Origin: Eledone cirrhosa
Taxonomy: Eukaryota
Direction of reading: 5' to 3'
NCBI GenBank assembly: GCA_964016885.1
Contig: OZ024762.1
Span: 1,922,001-1,986,000, forward strand
Length of the DNA stretch: 64,000 nucleotides
Shown one piece after another: positions 9,421 through 58,572 of this stretch. The notes under the pieces were generated by a model. It was not told the origin of the DNA, ran no database searches, and saw only the letters and a program-made list of their open reading frames with translations. A program made the translations under genes and the position numbers. Every line of letters starts with the position of its first letter. Within the stretch, counting starts at the first letter, position 1.

Positions 9421-9653
9421 ACACATATATATATATACGTATATATACATTTAAATACCTATATATATATATACATTTATATACCGATATATATATATTT
9501 GTGTGTGTATATATATATATATATCTATATATATATACATATATATATATAGATATATAAATATATGTATATATATATATATTGTTATACTTGGGGAGGG
9601 TCACATTGTTGTAATAATATTGCTTTCACCCTTAACGGGATCTTCAGAAACTA

Positions 9654-16572: not shown

Positions 16573-16609
<37 letters not shown>

Positions 16610-16610
16610 T

Positions 16611-17078
16611 ACACTGGTGTGTATGATTGTGTATAAAAGATTATATTAATAAAATTATATTAATAAAATTTATAATGGTATTAGAATGAAATAGTATGGT
16701 AAAATATTAAATGTTAAGTGTTAATTGAACAAGTACAGTCAAGTTTTCAATTTTCAACTTTCAGAGTTAAAAATTGCAAACTTGACTGTCACCACAGAAT
16801 ATGAACCTAAAGATTGCAAAAGCATGAAACTACTTGTTGCTTCAGGTTCATATTCTGTGTGACAGTCAAGTTTGCAATTTTCAACAGTTGAAAATTGCAA
16901 ACTTGACTGTCACCACATATTATGATCCTGAAGATTGCAAAAGCATGAAAGTACTTGTTCAATTAACACTTAACATTTAATATTCTACCATACTATTTCA
17001 TTCTAATACCATTATAAATTTTAAAGGATTGTAAATAAAACGAGTAAATCAGACAAAGTTGGAATTCCTTTTATTAAT
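16611..17078. mobile_element. Rearranged copy of the family-A hammerhead palindrome
   Basis: Same arms as 34561-34937 with an internal duplication/inversion; plus-strand hammerhead with intact core at 16923-16961, degenerate copy at 16802-16838. Confidence 0.8.
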
Positions 17079-17242
17079 ATATATATGCAAGCAAGACAAC
17101 CACTCTTGCCTCAAGTGGGAAAACTCCCGTCCAAACCCATGCAAGCGTGGAAGATGGACGTTAAACGACGATGATGATGATGATGATGATATATATAGTG
17201 ACAAAACATAAGTCAATTGCATGAACTCATAATCCTTTATTT

Positions 17243-17299
17243 ACTGCTATATATATTTTCGATGATAGCCATTGAATGGTTATGACCTCATCAGGCAGT
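17243..17299 (-). ncRNA. Type I hammerhead ribozyme, family C
   Basis: Minus strand: ACTGC-CTGATGA-GGTCATAACCATTCAATGGCTATCATC-GAAA-aTATATA-TA-GCAGT. Confidence 0.7.
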
Positions 17300-17977
17300 T
17301 AGTCAGTACTTAGATATGCCAGCTCTGTTTTTATGGTGTTGATGGTATCAGAGCCTTGGGACATATATATATATATATATATATACATATATATATGAAA
17401 ATATGGGTGAGAAGAATACTGCTGGTTGCACATGGATAACATGTTATAAAATGAGTCCCTCATCAGTGATTTACCAAACGATCATGGGTATTTCATCGCA
17501 TTAAAAATCATATACCTCACGTTGGAGCGGTAATAACTAAAATAAGTTATTAGGACAATAGAAACGCGTAAAGCGAGTGAGACAAGTAAACAACACAGGG
17601 GGAAGCTAACCGAAGATGGAAATAAACACAAGCAACATAGTTATTCTTTCAGCATAAGCTGTGTGAATATATGAGCGAGTCATATATGTATGTATGTATG
17701 TGTGAGTCATGATAAGGAAGCTGTGTATATCTGGTACACAAGATATAAATGTAATAACTTCAGATATATCTGTTATCAGGTTCTCCATCTCTGATGATAT
17801 TTCTTACTGTAACATCTCAGAAGATAATACATTCCTGTTATTACCAACAGAAATATACAGCTTTCACAACACACAGCTATGTGTGTGTGTGTGTGTGTGT
17901 GTGTATGTATATATATATATGTGTGTGTGTGTGTGTATGTGTATATATCTATATATATATGTGTGTGTGTGTGTATG

Positions 17978-34170: not shown

Positions 34171-34673
34171 CATATATATGTGTGTATATATACATATATA
34201 TATATGCGTGTATGTGTGTGTGTATATATATATATATATATGTAAACATTAGAAAGTTGAGGGTCACTCGATATTATGTAAGAGTGACTCATGGTGGGCT
34301 TTGTTTCTGGAGTGGTGAATGTTTCGATGAGTTTATAGTAAATGAGAATATGACTAATATTGTTGTTGTCGGTGTTGTCATAAAACATGAAATATATACT
34401 GTAACCAACACAAAGAAAACCTATGCAATATATAATACAAACACACACACGTATGTATGTATACATCTATATATATATAAATATATGTGTATATATAAAT
34501 ATATATATATAGAGATAAATATACACGGGTGTGTATGATTGTGTATAGAAGATTATATTAATAAGAGGAATTCCAACTTTGTCTGATTTACTCGTTTTAT
34601 TTACAATCCTTTAAAATTTATAATGGTATTATAATGAAATAGTATGGTAGAATATTAAATGTTAAGTGTTAAT

Positions 34674-34712
34674 TGAACAAGTACTTTCATGCTTTCGCAA
34701 TCTTCAGGTTCA
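34674..34712 (-). ncRNA. Type I hammerhead ribozyme, family A
   Basis: Minus strand: TGAAC-CTGAAGA-TTGCgaaaGCAT-GAAA-GTAC-TT-GTTCA; 5-bp stem I, GAAA tetraloop in stem II, palindromic stem III AGTACT. Confidence 0.8.
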
Positions 34713-34785
34713 TATTCTGTGGTGACAGTCAAGTTTGCAATTTTCAACAGTTGAAAATTGCAAACTTGACTGTCACCACAGAATA

Positions 34786-34824
34786 TGATCCTGAAGATTG
34801 CAAAAGCATGAAAGTACTTGTTCA
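34786..34824 (+). ncRNA. Type I hammerhead ribozyme, family A (mirror copy)
   Basis: TGATC-CTGAAGA-TTGCaaaaGCAT-GAAA-GTAC-TT-GTTCA. Confidence 0.7.
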
Positions 34825-34932
34825 ATTAACACTTAACATTTAATATTCTACCATACTATTTCATTATAATACCATTATAAATTTTAAAGGATTGTAAATA
34901 AAACGAGTAAATCAGACAAAGTTGGAATTCCT

Positions 34933-34974
<42 letters not shown>

Positions 34975-35298
34975 TATATAAATGAAAATATAGAAATCAT
35001 TGTGAGCGTGAAGCCAACAGTATGTTATAACATAAAATGACTATAATGTCAAAATGGAAAATAATTAACGTAAGATGTGGGAAAATAATTCAAACTCAAT
35101 TAAAAAAAAATCAAGACAGAGATTTTATCCACAGATTTTGTGAAATCCAGGGAAAATATATGTATATATAAATATACATATATATATATAAATATATATA
35201 TAAATATACATATATATATATATAAATATGTGTATATATAAATATATATATATATATAAATATATATAAATATACATATATATATATAAATATATGTG

Positions 35299-39886: not shown

Positions 39887-39931
<45 letters not shown>

Positions 39932-40025
39932 GTAGAACACTGGAGCGTTATATCCGTAGTGGTAGAGCACTCAGTCCATGGTCCGAGTTTGGTAGAAGTA
40001 GTTCCACAACAGTTAGTTCACCATT

Positions 40026-40068
40026 ACCGAGAACAATTGTTTCACCTTATTCGGATCATCAGCTCGGT
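40026..40068 (-). ncRNA. Type I hammerhead ribozyme, family F, in an inverted repeat (mirror remnant on + at 40100-40136)
   Basis: Minus strand: ACCGAG-CTGATGA-TCCgaataaGGT-GAAA-CAATTG-TT-CTCGGT. Confidence 0.78.
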
Positions 40069-40258
40069 CTAAATGAAGTTTCCATACAACTTCATTTAGC
40101 TGATGATCCAACTAAGGTGAAACAATTGTTTTCGGTAACAATTGCGGAACCAGTTTTCCAAGAGATGTCAACATGAATGGACCTGTTATTTTTATCTAAA
40201 GACATTTTTTTAAAATTCCACGCCACCTGTCCCCTCAATCTATCTTATTTCTCATTCT

Positions 40259-40806: not shown

Positions 40807-41070
40807 TATATTTGGTACTTATAAATGGCCTCAGATTACTAACACATACAGACAACTGTGTGCCTCATACTTCTCACCTATATGTTTTTAAATGCTTAAT
40901 TGTACACGACATCCTGCAACCACAGACACACATGTATCTATATATACACACACACATAGACATACACACACATAGACATACAGATACACACACCAACCCA
41001 TATATATATATATATATGTATATATGTGTGTGTGTGTGTGTGTATGTATATATATATATAATATAGAAAT

Positions 41071-41121
41071 GGCTTCTACAGGACTAGAACTGTTTCATTC
41101 GGGAGAAATCATCAGGAAGCC
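41071..41121 (-). ncRNA. Type I hammerhead ribozyme, family B (conventional stem III), inside palindrome 41060-41182
   Basis: Minus strand: GGCTTC-CTGATGA-TTTCtcccGAAT-GAAA-CAG ttctagtc CTG-TA-GAAGCC; GUA cleavage triplet. Confidence 0.8.
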
Positions 41122-41645
41122 GACTCCTGATGATTTCTCCCGAATGAAACTGTTCTAGTCCTGTAGAAGCCATTTCTATATTAAATATTTATACTCTGCT
41201 ATGCATTGAGTACCTTACTGTCGTTACCCCTGATTGAACCTGGGATAAACTTATATATATATAGAGAGAGAGAGAGAGACAGATGGATAGATATAGATAT
41301 ATATAAACATGCATACACACAGACAGACAGACAGACAGACATATATAAACGCCCACTGTCACATGCCCCCTCAATACCCTCCTCTCCCCATACCCCACCC
41401 CCTCATATCATACCACCTCCACTCCACCCACAGCCGGCACAGAGTAGAGTGTGAATAAACTGTGACATACAGAGGCACGTGCAGGTAACATACACCAACA
41501 GACACACACACACACATATATACACATACACACACACACATATACATATATATATATACATACACACACACATATATGCACACGTATACACACACACACA
41601 CATATATATGCACATTTATACACACATACATACACACACATGTGC

Positions 41646-42313: not shown

Positions 42314-42342
42314 AGAGATATAGCATATCTAAGAACTGACTA

Positions 42343-42398
42343 ACTGCTTGATGAGGTCATAGCCATTCAATGGCTATCATCGAAATATATATAGCAGT
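42343..42398 (+). ncRNA. Hammerhead family C with a C3U core change
   Basis: ACTGC-TTGATGA-GGTCATAGCCATTCAATGGCTATCATC-GAAA-TATATA-TA-GCAGT. Confidence 0.6.
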
Positions 42399-42562
42399 AA
42401 ATAAAGGATTATAAGTTCATGCAATTGACTTATGTTTCATCACTATATATATATATATCAGTTACTGTCCCACCCTTGCAAGCAGGGAAAAGCAGACGTA
42501 AAATTATGATGATGATATATATGTAAATGAAACTTCCTTATTTTTTCTATTATATATATATC

Positions 42563-42660
<98 letters not shown>

Positions 42661-42701
42661 AGAAACATAAGTCAATTGCATGAACTCATAATCCTTTATT
42701 T

Positions 42702-42757
42702 ACTGCTATATATATTTCGATGATAGCCATTGAATGGCTATGACCTCATCAGGCAGT
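42702..42757 (-). ncRNA. Type I hammerhead ribozyme, family C (intact)
   Basis: Minus strand: ACTGC-CTGATGA-GGTCATAGCCATtcaATGGCTATCATC-GAAA-TATATA-TA-GCAGT. Confidence 0.8.
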
Positions 42758-42786
42758 TAGTCAGTTCTTAGATATGCCATATATCT

Positions 42787-42827
<41 letters not shown>

Positions 42828-42951
42828 ATATAATAATAATGAAATTATTGTGTAAAGTGCTCAGGTGCAATGTATAGTACATAGAAGTATATATGTATAT
42901 ATGTACATATGTATATATATATGTATATATGTATATATGTATGTATGTATG

Positions 42952-42984
<33 letters not shown>

Positions 42985-43284
42985 GTATATGTATATGTGT
43001 ATATGTATGTGTGGACCCATAGCTCCTAGTTGAGTCATAGGGTAACCATAGAGACACACAGCTCTCTTCTTCCAGAAAAGAACAGAGAAAGAAATAGATA
43101 GAGAAGAAGAATTGACCCCAGTATTTGATTGGTACTAGTTTATTTTATCAACCTCGAAAGGATAAAAGGTAAAGATGACTTTGCTGGGATATGAACTTAG
43201 AGGGTACTGAGATAGAGAACACTGCAAAGCATTTTATCTGATGTTCTAACGACTCTGACAATTCGCCGTATTTTTCAATTGCAA

Positions 43285-50785: not shown

Positions 50786-51081
50786 AATAAACCTAAGAGG
50801 AAAAACTTAAAAATGGTCATCGCGGACCACTCTGACTGGTCAGGTGGGCCGGATTGTGGCCCGTGGGCCGCCTGCTGCACACCCCTGGTTCTGGTCTGGT
50901 GGGCCGGATTGTGGCCCGCAGGCCGCCTGCTGCACACCCCTGGTTCTGGTCTGGTGGGCCGGATTGTGGCCCGTGGGCCGCCTGCTGCACACCCCTGGTT
51001 CTGGTCTGGTGGGCCGGATTGTGGCCCGTGGGCCGCCTGCTGCACACCCCTGGTTCTGGTCTGGTGGGCCGGATTGTGGCC
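50786..51081 (+). mobile_element. hAT-type right terminus tandemly repeated (55-bp unit, ~4.5 copies)
   Basis: GGGCCGGATTGTGGCCCGTGGGCCGCCTGCTGCACACCCCTG resembles hAT/Charlie ends (GGCCCGCGGGCC...ACCCCTG). Confidence 0.65.
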
Positions 51082-51094
51082 ACGCCTGTATCAC

Positions 51095-54000
51095 TACTAA
51101 TAGACACTCTACTAATAGTATTACCACAACAACAACAGATACTACTGATACTATTACAACAACAACAGATACTACTAATACTATTACAACTACAACAGAT
51201 ACTACTGATACTATTACAACAACAACAGATACTACTAATACTATTACAACTACAACAGATACTACTGATACTATTACAACAACAACAGATACTACTAATA
51301 CTATTACAACTACAACAGATACTACTGATACTATTACAACAACAGATACTACTAATACTATTACAACAACAACAGATACTACTGATACTATTACAACAAC
51401 AGATACTACTAATACTATTACAACAACAACAGATACTACTAATACTATTACAACAACAGATACTACTAATACTATTACAACAACAACAGATACTACTGAT
51501 ACTATTACAACAACAGATACTACTAATACTATTACAACAACAGATACTACTAATACTATTACAACAACAGATACTACTAATACTATTACAACAACAACAG
51601 ATACTACTAATACTATTACAACAACAACAGATACTACTAATACTATTACAACAACAGATACTACTAATACTATTACAACAACAACAGATACTACTAATAC
51701 TATTACAACAACAACAGATACTACTAATACTATTACAACAACAGATACTACTAATACTATTACAACAACAACAGATACTACTAATACTATTACAACAACA
51801 ACAGATACTACTAATACTATTACAACAACAACAGATACTACTAATACTATTACAACAACAACAGATACTACTAATACTATTACAACAACAGATACTACTA
51901 ATACTATTACAACAACAACAGATACTACTAATACTATTACAACAACAACAGATACTACTAATACTATTACAACAACAACAGATACTACTAATACTATTAC
52001 AACAACAACAGATACTACTAATACTATTACAACAACAACAGATACTACTAATACTATTACAACAACAGATACTACTAATACTATTACAACAACAACAGAT
52101 ACTACTAATACTATTACAACAACAACAGATACTACTAATACTATTACAACAACAGATACTACTAATACTATTACAACAACAACAGATACTACTAATACTA
52201 TTACAACAACAACAGATACTACTAATACTATTACAACAACAGATACTACTAATACTATTACAACAACAACAGATACTACTAATACTATTACAACAACAAC
52301 AGATACTACTAATACTATTACAACAACAACAGATACTACTAATACTATTACAACAACAACAGATACTACTAATACTATTACAACAACAACAGATACTACT
52401 AATACTATTACAACAACAACAGATACTACTAATACTATTACAACAACAGATACTACTAATACTATTACAACAACAACAGATACTACTAATACTATTACAA
52501 CAACAACAGATACTACTAATACTATTACAACAACAGATACTACTAATACTATTACAACAACAACAGATACTACTAATACTATTACAACAACAACAGATAC
52601 TACTAATACTATTACAACAACAGATACTACTAATACTATTACAACAACAACAGATACTACTAATACTATTACAACAACAACAGATACTACTAATACTATT
52701 ACAACAACAACAGATACTACTAATACTATTACAACAACAACAGATACTACTAATACTATTACAACAACAACAGATACTACTAATACTATTACAACAACAA
52801 CAGATACTACTAATACTATTACAACAACAACAGATACTACTAATACTATTACAACAACAACAGATACTACTAATACTATTACAACAACAGATACTACTAA
52901 TACTATTACAACAACAACAGATACTACTAATACTATTACAACAACAGATACTACTAATACTATTACAACAACAGATACTACTAATACTATTACAACAACA
53001 GATACTACTAATACTATTACAACAACAGATACTACTAATACTATTACAACAACAACAGATACTACTAATACTATTACAACAACAGATACTACTAATACTA
53101 TTACAACAACAGATACTACTAATACTATTACAACAACAACAGATACTACTAATACTATTACAACAACAACAGATACTACTAATACTATTACAACAACAGA
53201 TACTACTAATACTATTACAACAACAGATACTACTAATACTATTACAACAACAACAGATACTACTAATACTATTACAACAACAACAGATACTACTAATACT
53301 ATTACAACAACAACAGATACTACTAATACTATTACAACAACAACAGATACTACTAATACTATTACAACAACAACAGATACTACTGATACTATTACAACAA
53401 CAGATACTACTAATACTATTACAACAACAACAGATACTACTAATACTATTACAACAACAGATACTACTAATACTATTACAACAACAGATACTACTAATAC
53501 TATTACAACAACAGATACTACTAATACTATTACAACAACAGATACTACTAATACTATTACAACAACAGATACTACTAATACTATTACAACAACAGATACT
53601 ACTAATACTATTACAACAACAACAGATACTACTAATACTATTACAACAACAGATACTACTAATACTATTACAACAACAACAGATACTACTAATACTATTA
53701 CAACAACAACAGATACTACTAATACTATTACAACAACAACAGATACTACTAATACTATTACAACAACAACAGATACTACTAATACTATTACAACAACAAC
53801 AGATACTACTGATACTATTACAACAACAGATACTACTGATACTATTACAACAACAACAGATACTACTAATACTATTACAACAACAACAGATACTACTGAT
53901 ACAACAATAGTTAGTGCTACTCAAAAGCAACAGTAACAACAACAACTATAAGAACTGTAACAACAACAGTAACAACAGCTATAAGAACAACAACAACAGT

Positions 54001-57120: not shown

Positions 57121-57967
57121 TTATTATTAATATTATGTATTTTTTCTGGTTAATGTTAATTTTATTAGTATTAATACTTGTGTGGTTTGGAATACCACAC
57201 TGAATAAATTATATACAAGTCTTTCTCTCTCACTATATATATATATATATACACATACATATAACTCATACATACATGTGTGTGTATGTATATATATATA
57301 TGTGTGCGTGTGCATACTTACATTTATGTATCAGCTGTGCTAGGGCGAGAAATATAATTCTTATTTTATATATATATATATATATATATACATATTTATA
57401 TACATATACAGGGTACCCCAAAAAGGTATACACACTTTGGTTACCTGTACAAGCAATATTTATTAGAATGCACAACCTTTGTGTATACATATTTTTAGGA
57501 CACATCTATATATTTATATACACATACGCACACATAAAGAGAAGAGGGGAAAAAAAAAAGGAAAGAGAGAAGGGAAAAAAACCAAAAAGAAACACACAGT
57601 CCACATTGTAAAGTGGCCATGTAGGTAACACGGTAAAAAGCTCCCAGTCCACACTGTAAATGTGGTTGGTGTTAAGAAGGGCATCCAACCGTAGAAAACC
57701 TGCCAGGTAGTCCCATACGTGCAAGACACAGCCACCGCCCAACCAATCTTGCCTCAAAATGGGACAACTCCTATCTAACCCATGCTAGCATGGAAGATAG
57801 ACGTTAAACGATGATGACGATGATGACGATGATAGATGCGTGTGTGTTTATCCCGGGATCAATCGGGAGTAACCACAGTAAGTAAGGTACTCAATACATA
57901 GCAGGGTATAAGATATAGAAATGGCTTTTACAGGACTAGAACTGTTTCATTCAAAGGAAATCATCAG

Positions 57968-58019
57968 GGCTTTCCTGATGATTTCCTTTGAATGAAACAG
58001 TTCTAGTCCTGTAGAAGCC
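57968..58019 (+). ncRNA. Hammerhead family B inside palindrome 57913-58029
   Basis: GGCTTTC-CTGATGA-TTTCctttGAAT-GAAA-CAG ttctagtc CTG-TA-GAAGCC; stem II loop differs from the 41071 copy while the stem is kept. Confidence 0.72.
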
Positions 58020-58572
58020 ATTTCTATATATATATATATATTTATTAAAATAACATATGTAGGGTGAAAGCAGCAATTCTTTGCTTAAACTTTTAATAAA
58101 TATTTGCTCTAGGGTTCTTATATATTTGATATATATTTATCCTTATCTCTTTAGATTTAAGTCTTTACATTTATTATTATTACTATTATATATATATATA
58201 CACACACACACACGCAAGTGTGTATAAATATATATGGGTGTGTATATAAATATATATATATATAAATATCTGTATGTAGGTGTGCGTATAGCATAGCTTT
58301 CTGCTGTTTGGCGATGACTTATTTGAAGGTCAGATTTTTCTCAAGCTTTCATTCATAACTTCTGTTCATACAACCTGTTTGGTATAATAGGGGCTAATAA
58401 TTTATGGGCCCATGCTAAACCCAATTAAATTCTTCTCATATAACATTATAAAGGGAAAACAAAGCTAAAACTAAATATTTTCTTGAATTAAATCTATTCA
58501 AGGTTATTATATTGTTAACTGTTAAGAGAGGAATTTGGCAATCTAGAGTAACCTGCCTGATGGAGTTGGTAC

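Follow-up and report, generated by a model that had tools for sequence, protein, structure and literature searches.

The palindrome at 34561-34937 of the window (the whole stretch of 64,000 nucleotides of Eledone cirrhosa DNA that was analysed) is an ordinary by-product of insertion, without the status of a stand-alone unit. It is almost certainly a head-to-head pair of pLTRs from an abundant Penelope-like element (PLE) lying in a TA repeat; that this identification holds and that, in addition, the centre of the palindrome lies at the start of the element's RNA is, taken jointly, very probable. The palindrome is a new family member of a PLE insertion structure that has already been described. 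The structure is known; its remaining interest lies in the probable placing of its centre at the start site. The parts of the insertion are as follows:

about 34460-34520, no strand assigned: TA-rich run upstream of the tail, on the left side; insertion target
34521-34562, minus strand: the PLE 'tail', 42 bp, on the left arm only; it follows the arm in the parent element
34561-34748, minus strand: tail-bearing arm, a pLTR/5'UTR of a Penelope-like element, sense on the minus strand
34747-34751, no strand assigned: junction, the 5-nt imperfect palindrome ACAGT, whose first A is the probable RNA 5' end
34750-34937, plus strand: tail-less inverted arm, a reverse-complement match, which runs to the (TA)n target
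34938-34982, no strand assigned: (TA)n run on the right side; insertion target

A sequence-only reading of this DNA had described 188-bp arms, a 1-nt centre and about two mismatches, and reverse-complement comparison bears this out: along all 188 bp on either side of A34749, the arms (34561-34748 and 34750-34937) pair as reverse complements, mismatched at exactly two places (34709/34789 and 34696/34802). At each of these it is the right arm that departs from the family majority, the T at position 40 being present in 2 of 229 arms and the A at position 53 in 36 of 229. The reading had placed the mismatches in stem I and loop II of a ribozyme, and this siting holds for the hammerhead-like motif described below. 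Its expected fold was also recovered, the region being predicted to form one hairpin of -295 kcal/mol.

The exact-centre junction occurs 503 times genome-wide, against 0 for a reversed control, and in two other DNA runs raw reads extend across the centre, some with A there and some with T (T in 12 of 27 and 12 of 18 reads); the whole palindrome is spanned by no read or contig in the other DNA runs examined. Because the junction recurs so often and is crossed by raw reads of other samples, an assembly artefact at the palindrome, the explanation held in reserve by the earlier reading in case raw long reads lacked the structure, is unlikely.

In a search of the same genome with one arm, 61 matches came from 40 of the 281 candidates scored, and several of them extend upstream into one conserved body (a repeat search over the whole window was dominated by microsatellites). 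The arm at 34561-34748 is 97% identical to the 3' end of two bodies with RT and GIY-YIG domains (L012 and L017) and 92-94% identical to the pLTRs of full-length copies. The full-length parent was described from three long copies, L093, L094 and L095. L095 is a 4,202-bp tandem unit in the order promoter, arm, tail, ORF1, ORF2, 3'UTR, promoter, arm, tail; in the full-length parent, the tail (42 bp plus a few variable bases) ends about 50 nt before the ATG of ORF1. In L095, ORF1 has about 448 aa and is overlapped in the -1 frame by ORF2, of 775 aa. The overlap (L095:2119-2209) lies around a T TTT TTA run, a type of motif that we take to be a likely programmed frameshift site. ORF2 is intact, with DKG at 158, YLDD at 428, a C-x4-C-x2-C linker and GIY-YIG; the linker, C650-NDNR-C-GT-C, is zinc-finger-like and matches CX2-5CxxC before the endonuclease. 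Pfam scored GIY-YIG above its cut-off and RVT_1 (E 2.9e-6) just below it, and 471 of the 8,000 candidates scored are relatives of ORF2 at E<=1e-50.

Direct pLTRs, from partial tandems, are present in L093, L094 and L095, and inverted pLTRs adjoin two of these three full-length copies (L093 and L094). Exact matching, which gives lower bounds throughout, counted at least 7,245 arm 3' ends genome-wide, at least 3,691 arm 5' ends of one allele and at least 1,422 arms joined exactly to an element body; arms also occur solo. At one locus (L013:1320-1500), an arm is joined upstream, via CAG, to unrelated sequence in place of the element body. Genome-wide, copies of the element are located in TA runs, most of 100 listed arms end in (TA)n (a count made without a background comparison), and the tail-less arms of different copies end near one common TTATTAATA site. 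The traits that mark a pLTR insertion of an endonuclease-positive PLE are present, namely RT with GIY-YIG, direct and inverted pLTRs, a tail and AT-rich targets. The sequence-only reading had given an inverted pLTR of a Penelope element as its second option and had held that constant attachment to long Penelope bodies would make the palindrome an ordinary inversion by-product. The arms on RT and GIY-YIG bodies and the 4,202-bp tandem unit favour that option, and the attachment was largely found, in the body junctions just counted.

Long inverted arms in a TA context could also be those of a MITE, or hairpin DNA transposon with long TIRs at TA, or come from an assembly or library artefact. Even taken together these possibilities deserve hardly any credence: the ends are asymmetric, with a tail on one side in place of symmetric TIRs; arms occur solo and on RT bodies; centres vary; the parent is an RT element; and the arms carry mismatches, while raw reads of other samples cross the junction.

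Head-to-head pairs mostly have one arm, and one only, with a tail: this holds for 55 of the 58 close pairs (gaps up to 45 bp) and for 7 of the 9 with long spacers (339-2,552 bp), in a sample that mixes random and pattern-selected loci. Since the one-tail rule runs through close and long-spacer pairs, the palindrome at 34561-34937 can be placed as the shortest in a series of insertions with inverted arms. In 46 copies with the exact centre, the A strand carries the tail in 17 and the T strand in 18; 1 copy has it on both and 10 have it on neither. An impression from six loci of a link between centre base and tail side was dropped in view of this 17:18 ratio.

The fixed centre is likely to be the first base of the element's RNA, because 5' ends pile up at a single A, 31 nt past a TATA box. 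They were surveyed in the first 100 exact matches to the arm's 3' motif on one contig (C1), a selection blind to the 5' end. Fifty-six of these arms end within -5..+9 of the centre, 34 of them within -3..0. Of the others, a single one stops between -6 and -221, 26 have their end inside the arm and 17 continue further upstream; among these 17, 3 reach the edge of the examined stretch and 4 may belong to the UTR of another subfamily. An adjacent inverted partner is present in 60 of the 100. The peak falls on the A that opens ACAGTTG; counted from the first T of the TATA box, the distance to it is 31 nt in both old and young subfamilies, and CCAAT boxes lie upstream. A distance of 31 nt from the TATA box is the usual spacing of a start site. 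The exact centre falls where the 5' ends of arms in general accumulate, whether or not the arm is part of a palindrome.

Among 45 junction sites, 15 lead into the body, 8 are exact centres and 22 are of other kinds (after 6 body-variant rows were reassigned from an initial 28); these 22, which include joins to plain TA runs, begin at the same A as the centre. In exact centres, an end at -2 is forced by the symmetry of ACAGT. A cap is expected to give an extra G at cDNA ends. In the main family this signal is mixed: genome-wide, G+ACAG occurs 387 times and C+ACAG 695 times, and a recurrent junction, CAACTG-ACAG, which is suggestive, provides 8 of the 20 G rows among the junctions listed. A cap-derived G as proof of the start in the main family was set aside, C being the commoner base genome-wide. 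The arm ends begin 3 nt upstream of an AG that was considered as a splice acceptor. Asked, as the earlier reading had proposed, whether the centre is fixed among copies, the genome gives a divided answer: 503 centres are exact, yet many others vary. A literature search, thin on older Penelope papers and supplements, found no paper that equates the inverted junction with a start site.

A second family of head-to-head, hammerhead-bearing palindromes is present in the window at 41060-41249 and 57847-58030, with different centres. It has the layout of the main family (41060-41182 and 57915-58030), a one-sided tail of about 65 bp and 5,965 exact motif matches genome-wide. Its ends (30 of these 5,965 matches) gather 30 nt past a TATA box seen in two body-attached copies, and 7 of 9 ends have an extra G where those two copies have C; the start check is based on these two copies only, whose RT is presumed, and one false-match row was left out of the end survey. 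Seven near-identical larger repeats with a fragment of this family lie in the first 5.6 Mb of contig C1 (L228-L232, L236 and L239 of G000:C1). The window also contains, at about 51000-54000, a long tandem array whose units measure 27-30 bp, with sub-periods of 9 bp and a strong GC skew.

The main inference of the sequence-only reading was that the palindrome itself spreads, as an ambisense viroid-like unit, and it pointed to a second copy in the window:

16604-17081, no strand assigned: rearranged second copy, centre at 16886, tail on the left; private variants link it to the first copy and to L269, a locus about 1.07 Mb away

This copy does have the same centre and the same left flank as the first, but the flank is the element's tail, not host DNA. 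Nor is the copy an independent witness, for it shares private variants with the first copy and L269. Two changes co-occur only in the right arms of both window copies (2 of 12 hits). The private rearranged junction of copy 2 is found at two loci only, window 16604-17366 and L269 (G000:C23:3009915-3012938), and it recurs in the latter at C23:3011462 with the tail on the opposite side; L269 lies about 1.07 Mb from copy 2, and a downstream flank repeat is common to both. Between the two window copies, no shared flanks were found beyond the element and common repeats. L269 and copy 2 suggest duplication plus flipping or conversion of the palindrome, and the simplest reading of the window copies and L269 is local duplication and conversion. 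The haplotype shared by the two window copies, with the junction shared by copy 2 and L269, thus indicates that some palindromic copies were duplicated or converted after insertion. A dispersed repeat with CTGATGA...GAAA and a longer stem II lies beside copy 2 and L269 (window 17189-17366, 42323-42458 and 42589-43008).

In 29 full one-tail copies, distances between copies are 4.9% from tail arm to tail arm, 4.6% from short arm to short arm and 4.8% across, and arms inside one copy differ by 1.6% (30 copies). A marker of the young subfamily occurs 706 times on bodies and in 294 arm matches at centres, and the polarity of centre and tail is mixed inside this subfamily. No A>G/T>C excess was found among the rare changes in palindromic arms (49 of 211 against 66 of 217), that is, no A-to-I signature, and the promoter lies upstream of the arm, outside the palindrome. 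Mixed polarity, equal distances, a marker on bodies as well as centres, no editing signature and an absent promoter all fit a palindrome that is formed afresh at each insertion. The spreading unit proposed by the earlier reading is not supported by these results, its arms being body-attached pLTRs and its recurrent centre lying at the pile-up of 5' ends.

It could still be supposed that some palindromes are a non-autonomous mobile unit, for which the parent's proteins would copy the hairpin anew, as RNA or DNA, and insert it again in one piece. The 503 exact centres, the two jointly private changes in the right arms of both window copies (2 of 12 hits) and the recurrence of the private junction at C23:3011462 with its tail switched would be in keeping with such a unit. 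However, the equality of the 4.9, 4.6 and 4.8% distances means that no left or right lineage is inherited, polarity is mixed in the young subfamily, the palindrome has neither a promoter nor an editing signature, and the downstream repeat common to L269 and copy 2 points to local duplication. Such a unit is quite improbable, and formation afresh at each insertion is retained.

The ribozyme-like sequences of the palindrome are two:

34674-34712, minus strand: minimal type-I hammerhead-like motif with the family-majority sequence (from sequence and drawn structure)
34786-34824, plus strand: second copy of the motif, likely damaged, with a stem I mismatch at 34789 and loop II changed from GAAA to AAAA at 34802

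The core occupies arm positions 37-75, on either strand. In the left arm, the motif has a 5-bp stem I (TGAAC/GTTCA), CTGAAGA, a 3-bp stem II with a GAAA loop, GAAA and the palindromic AGTACT, and the predicted cleavage would be after U34679 (CUU). Core positions C3-A9 and G12-A15.1, stem I and the palindromic 15.2-16.2 are present in this arm and in the family majority (229 arms). Minor alleles of the core, at 1.3%, are close to the arm median of 1.7% and are no proof of selection. The motif is atypical in that its 10.1/11.1 pair is U.U in place of G10.1-C11.1, and the calculated energy of the drawn structure is -5.0 kcal/mol for the left-arm motif and -0.3 kcal/mol for the right-arm one. A search of the window with Rfam gave no family at gathering score and, at E<=10, generic hairpin matches only, with no hammerhead. 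The earlier claim of a hammerhead on each strand is therefore to be narrowed: each strand does carry a minimal motif, without an Rfam match or G10.1-C11.1, and the right copy is likely damaged.

Further hammerhead-like cores lie in the window at 39928-40160, 40264, 22495 and 9647, among them a third pair on opposite strands, 40062 (minus) and 40100 (plus). The U.U at 10.1/11.1 recurs in two other families in the window. The 40062/40100 pair and the core at 9647 have it, and it may be a host-wide variant of the PLE hammerhead.

By its geometry alone, with a motif on each strand and a full-length hairpin, the palindrome might pass for a viroid-like rod RNA that has ribozymes active in both polarities, replicates as RNA and occasionally integrates. 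This is extremely improbable. With one motif per strand, a transcript would undergo a single cleavage, which defines no unit-length circle; the type is that of the dimer-dependent minimal hammerheads, whose monomer was inactive in the accessible text of PMC4209133; G10.1-C11.1 is missing and the right-arm motif is likely damaged; and the sequence is entirely the pLTR of a protein-coding element. The RNA hairpin and the presence of a hammerhead on each strand would follow from the head-to-head geometry, without any design. A caution follows: a genomic hairpin can come to carry a hammerhead on each strand with no viroid-like biology involved.

As to how the pair was formed, a route through two cDNAs is somewhat favoured. 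The stumps would be double strong-stop products, for which a PLE dimer copies the first 195-240 nt of the capped sense RNA at both ends of a break, the copies being joined at the first base. The element's protein would cut both strands of (TA)n, and reverse transcription would be primed at two internal sites near the 5' end of the sense RNA, one with the tail and one without. As in a retroviral strong-stop product, either cDNA would end by running off the first base of the RNA, at a length of about 195 or 240 nt. The 3' ends of both cDNAs would then join through the imperfect palindrome ACAGT, and its central mismatch would resolve to A or T at random. Such joining would explain why the tail is on one side only, why the centre is fixed and why its base is random. 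The accessible part of PMC11167929 reports that the anole PLE protein, a predicted dimer, cuts and extends both strands of AT-rich DNA, and that it initiates internally on the RNA, at two sites with the tail between them, ribozyme cleavage being unneeded. Two-site priming in Eledone is proposed by analogy with this in vitro anole system.

Rare variants common to both arms number 28 in the 58 close pairs and 1 in the 9 long-spacer pairs, against 0.0095 per pair among random pairs. Snap-back, one RNA copied twice or later arm-to-arm conversion would fit these shared variants as well as the two-cDNA model does. Chimeric arms were considered as evidence of two RNA templates, some pairs differing at linked common alleles (32/34, 87/88); but such alleles, being located within small inverted repeats of the arm, may have arisen more than once.

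Another route, for the same element, is that a cDNA that has reached the RNA 5' end snaps back, or that an antisense RNA primes itself, so that the mirror arm is copied from the first; antisense-RNA self-priming was proposed for inverted pLTR junctions in PMC3846280, in the text available. This would replace the mechanism only and keep the identification. In the snap-back variant, one A-T pair closes a 3-nt loop, and, to judge by the sequence, snap-back at CAACTGT would yield exactly TTTTCAAC-T-GTTGAAAA. The difference of 1.6% between arms inside a copy, against 4.8% between copies, the rare variants common to both arms and the repeated fold-back pieces at some centres (L003, L025, L196 and L205) are also what this route would give. 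However, it predicts a centre base tied to the side of the tail, where the observed ratio is 17:18 (later flipping of the centre by arm-to-arm recombination could mask such a tie); it has no source of a tail for the second arm when the first cDNA is tail-less; and long-spacer pairs, which have no fold-back centre, obey the one-tail rule in 7 of 9 cases. This second route is rather unlikely, and the joining of two cDNAs remains the preferred reading.

A centre that is the start site bears on how inverted pLTRs form, an origin that is called unresolved in the available portions of PMC8557442 and PMC11167929. If the double strong-stop proposal is true, hundreds of genomic junctions map the start site, and inverted pLTRs arise from sense templates, contrary to the published proposal of antisense self-priming. 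The family offers material for a direct test: its young copies number in the thousands, its full-length elements look intact and its junction is sharp.

Inverted pLTRs, palindromic junctions and a one-sided tail were already described in PMC3846280, as far as its accessible text goes. The inverted-pLTR PLEs in the available parts of that paper and of PMC8557442 resemble the Eledone family in having a pLTR of ~200 bp, an adjacent inverted pLTR, a palindromic junction, a 30-40-bp tail at one end, partial tandems and (TA)n targets; they differ in that the insertion described here is without any body and that one junction recurs in 503 copies at the probable RNA start. In contrast to the antisense self-priming of PMC3846280, as set out in that portion, the Eledone copies fit copying of a sense template better.

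By features given in the accessible sections of PMC8557442, rather than by a tree, the parent appears to be Neptune/Nematis-like, sharing with these PLEs a C-terminal GIY-YIG, the CX2-5CxxC linker, a (TA)n preference and the -1 overlap of ORF1 and RT; Neptune is paraphyletic according to the same sections. Bivalve proteins are among the named relatives of the ORF2 protein at 50-60% identity. PAc (Poseidon of Anolis carolinensis), in the available text of PMC11167929, is alike in its two 3' ends separated by the tail, in its AT-rich target and in a predicted dimer that cuts and extends both strands; its tail lies inside the ORF, whereas that of Eledone ends about 50 nt before ORF1. The inverted junction is not treated in that text.

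The minimal hammerheads of metazoan PLEs, in the part of PMC4209133 available, have the same type-I layout, 5-bp stem I, palindromic stem III, location in the pLTR and occurrence as opposite-strand pairs, which in Schistosoma are 100-700 bp apart; the Eledone motif differs in its 3-bp stem II, its U.U for G10.1-C11.1 and its CUU triplet. In its accessible portion, PMC13282606 mentions neither hammerheads nor palindromes. The non-LTR retrozymes of bioRxiv 10.64898/2026.07.22.740005, which in the text available covers head-to-tail retrozymes only, are likewise derived from pLTRs, hammerhead-bearing and non-coding. They are arranged head to tail with two ribozymes on one strand, whereas the Eledone palindrome is head-to-head with one on each strand.
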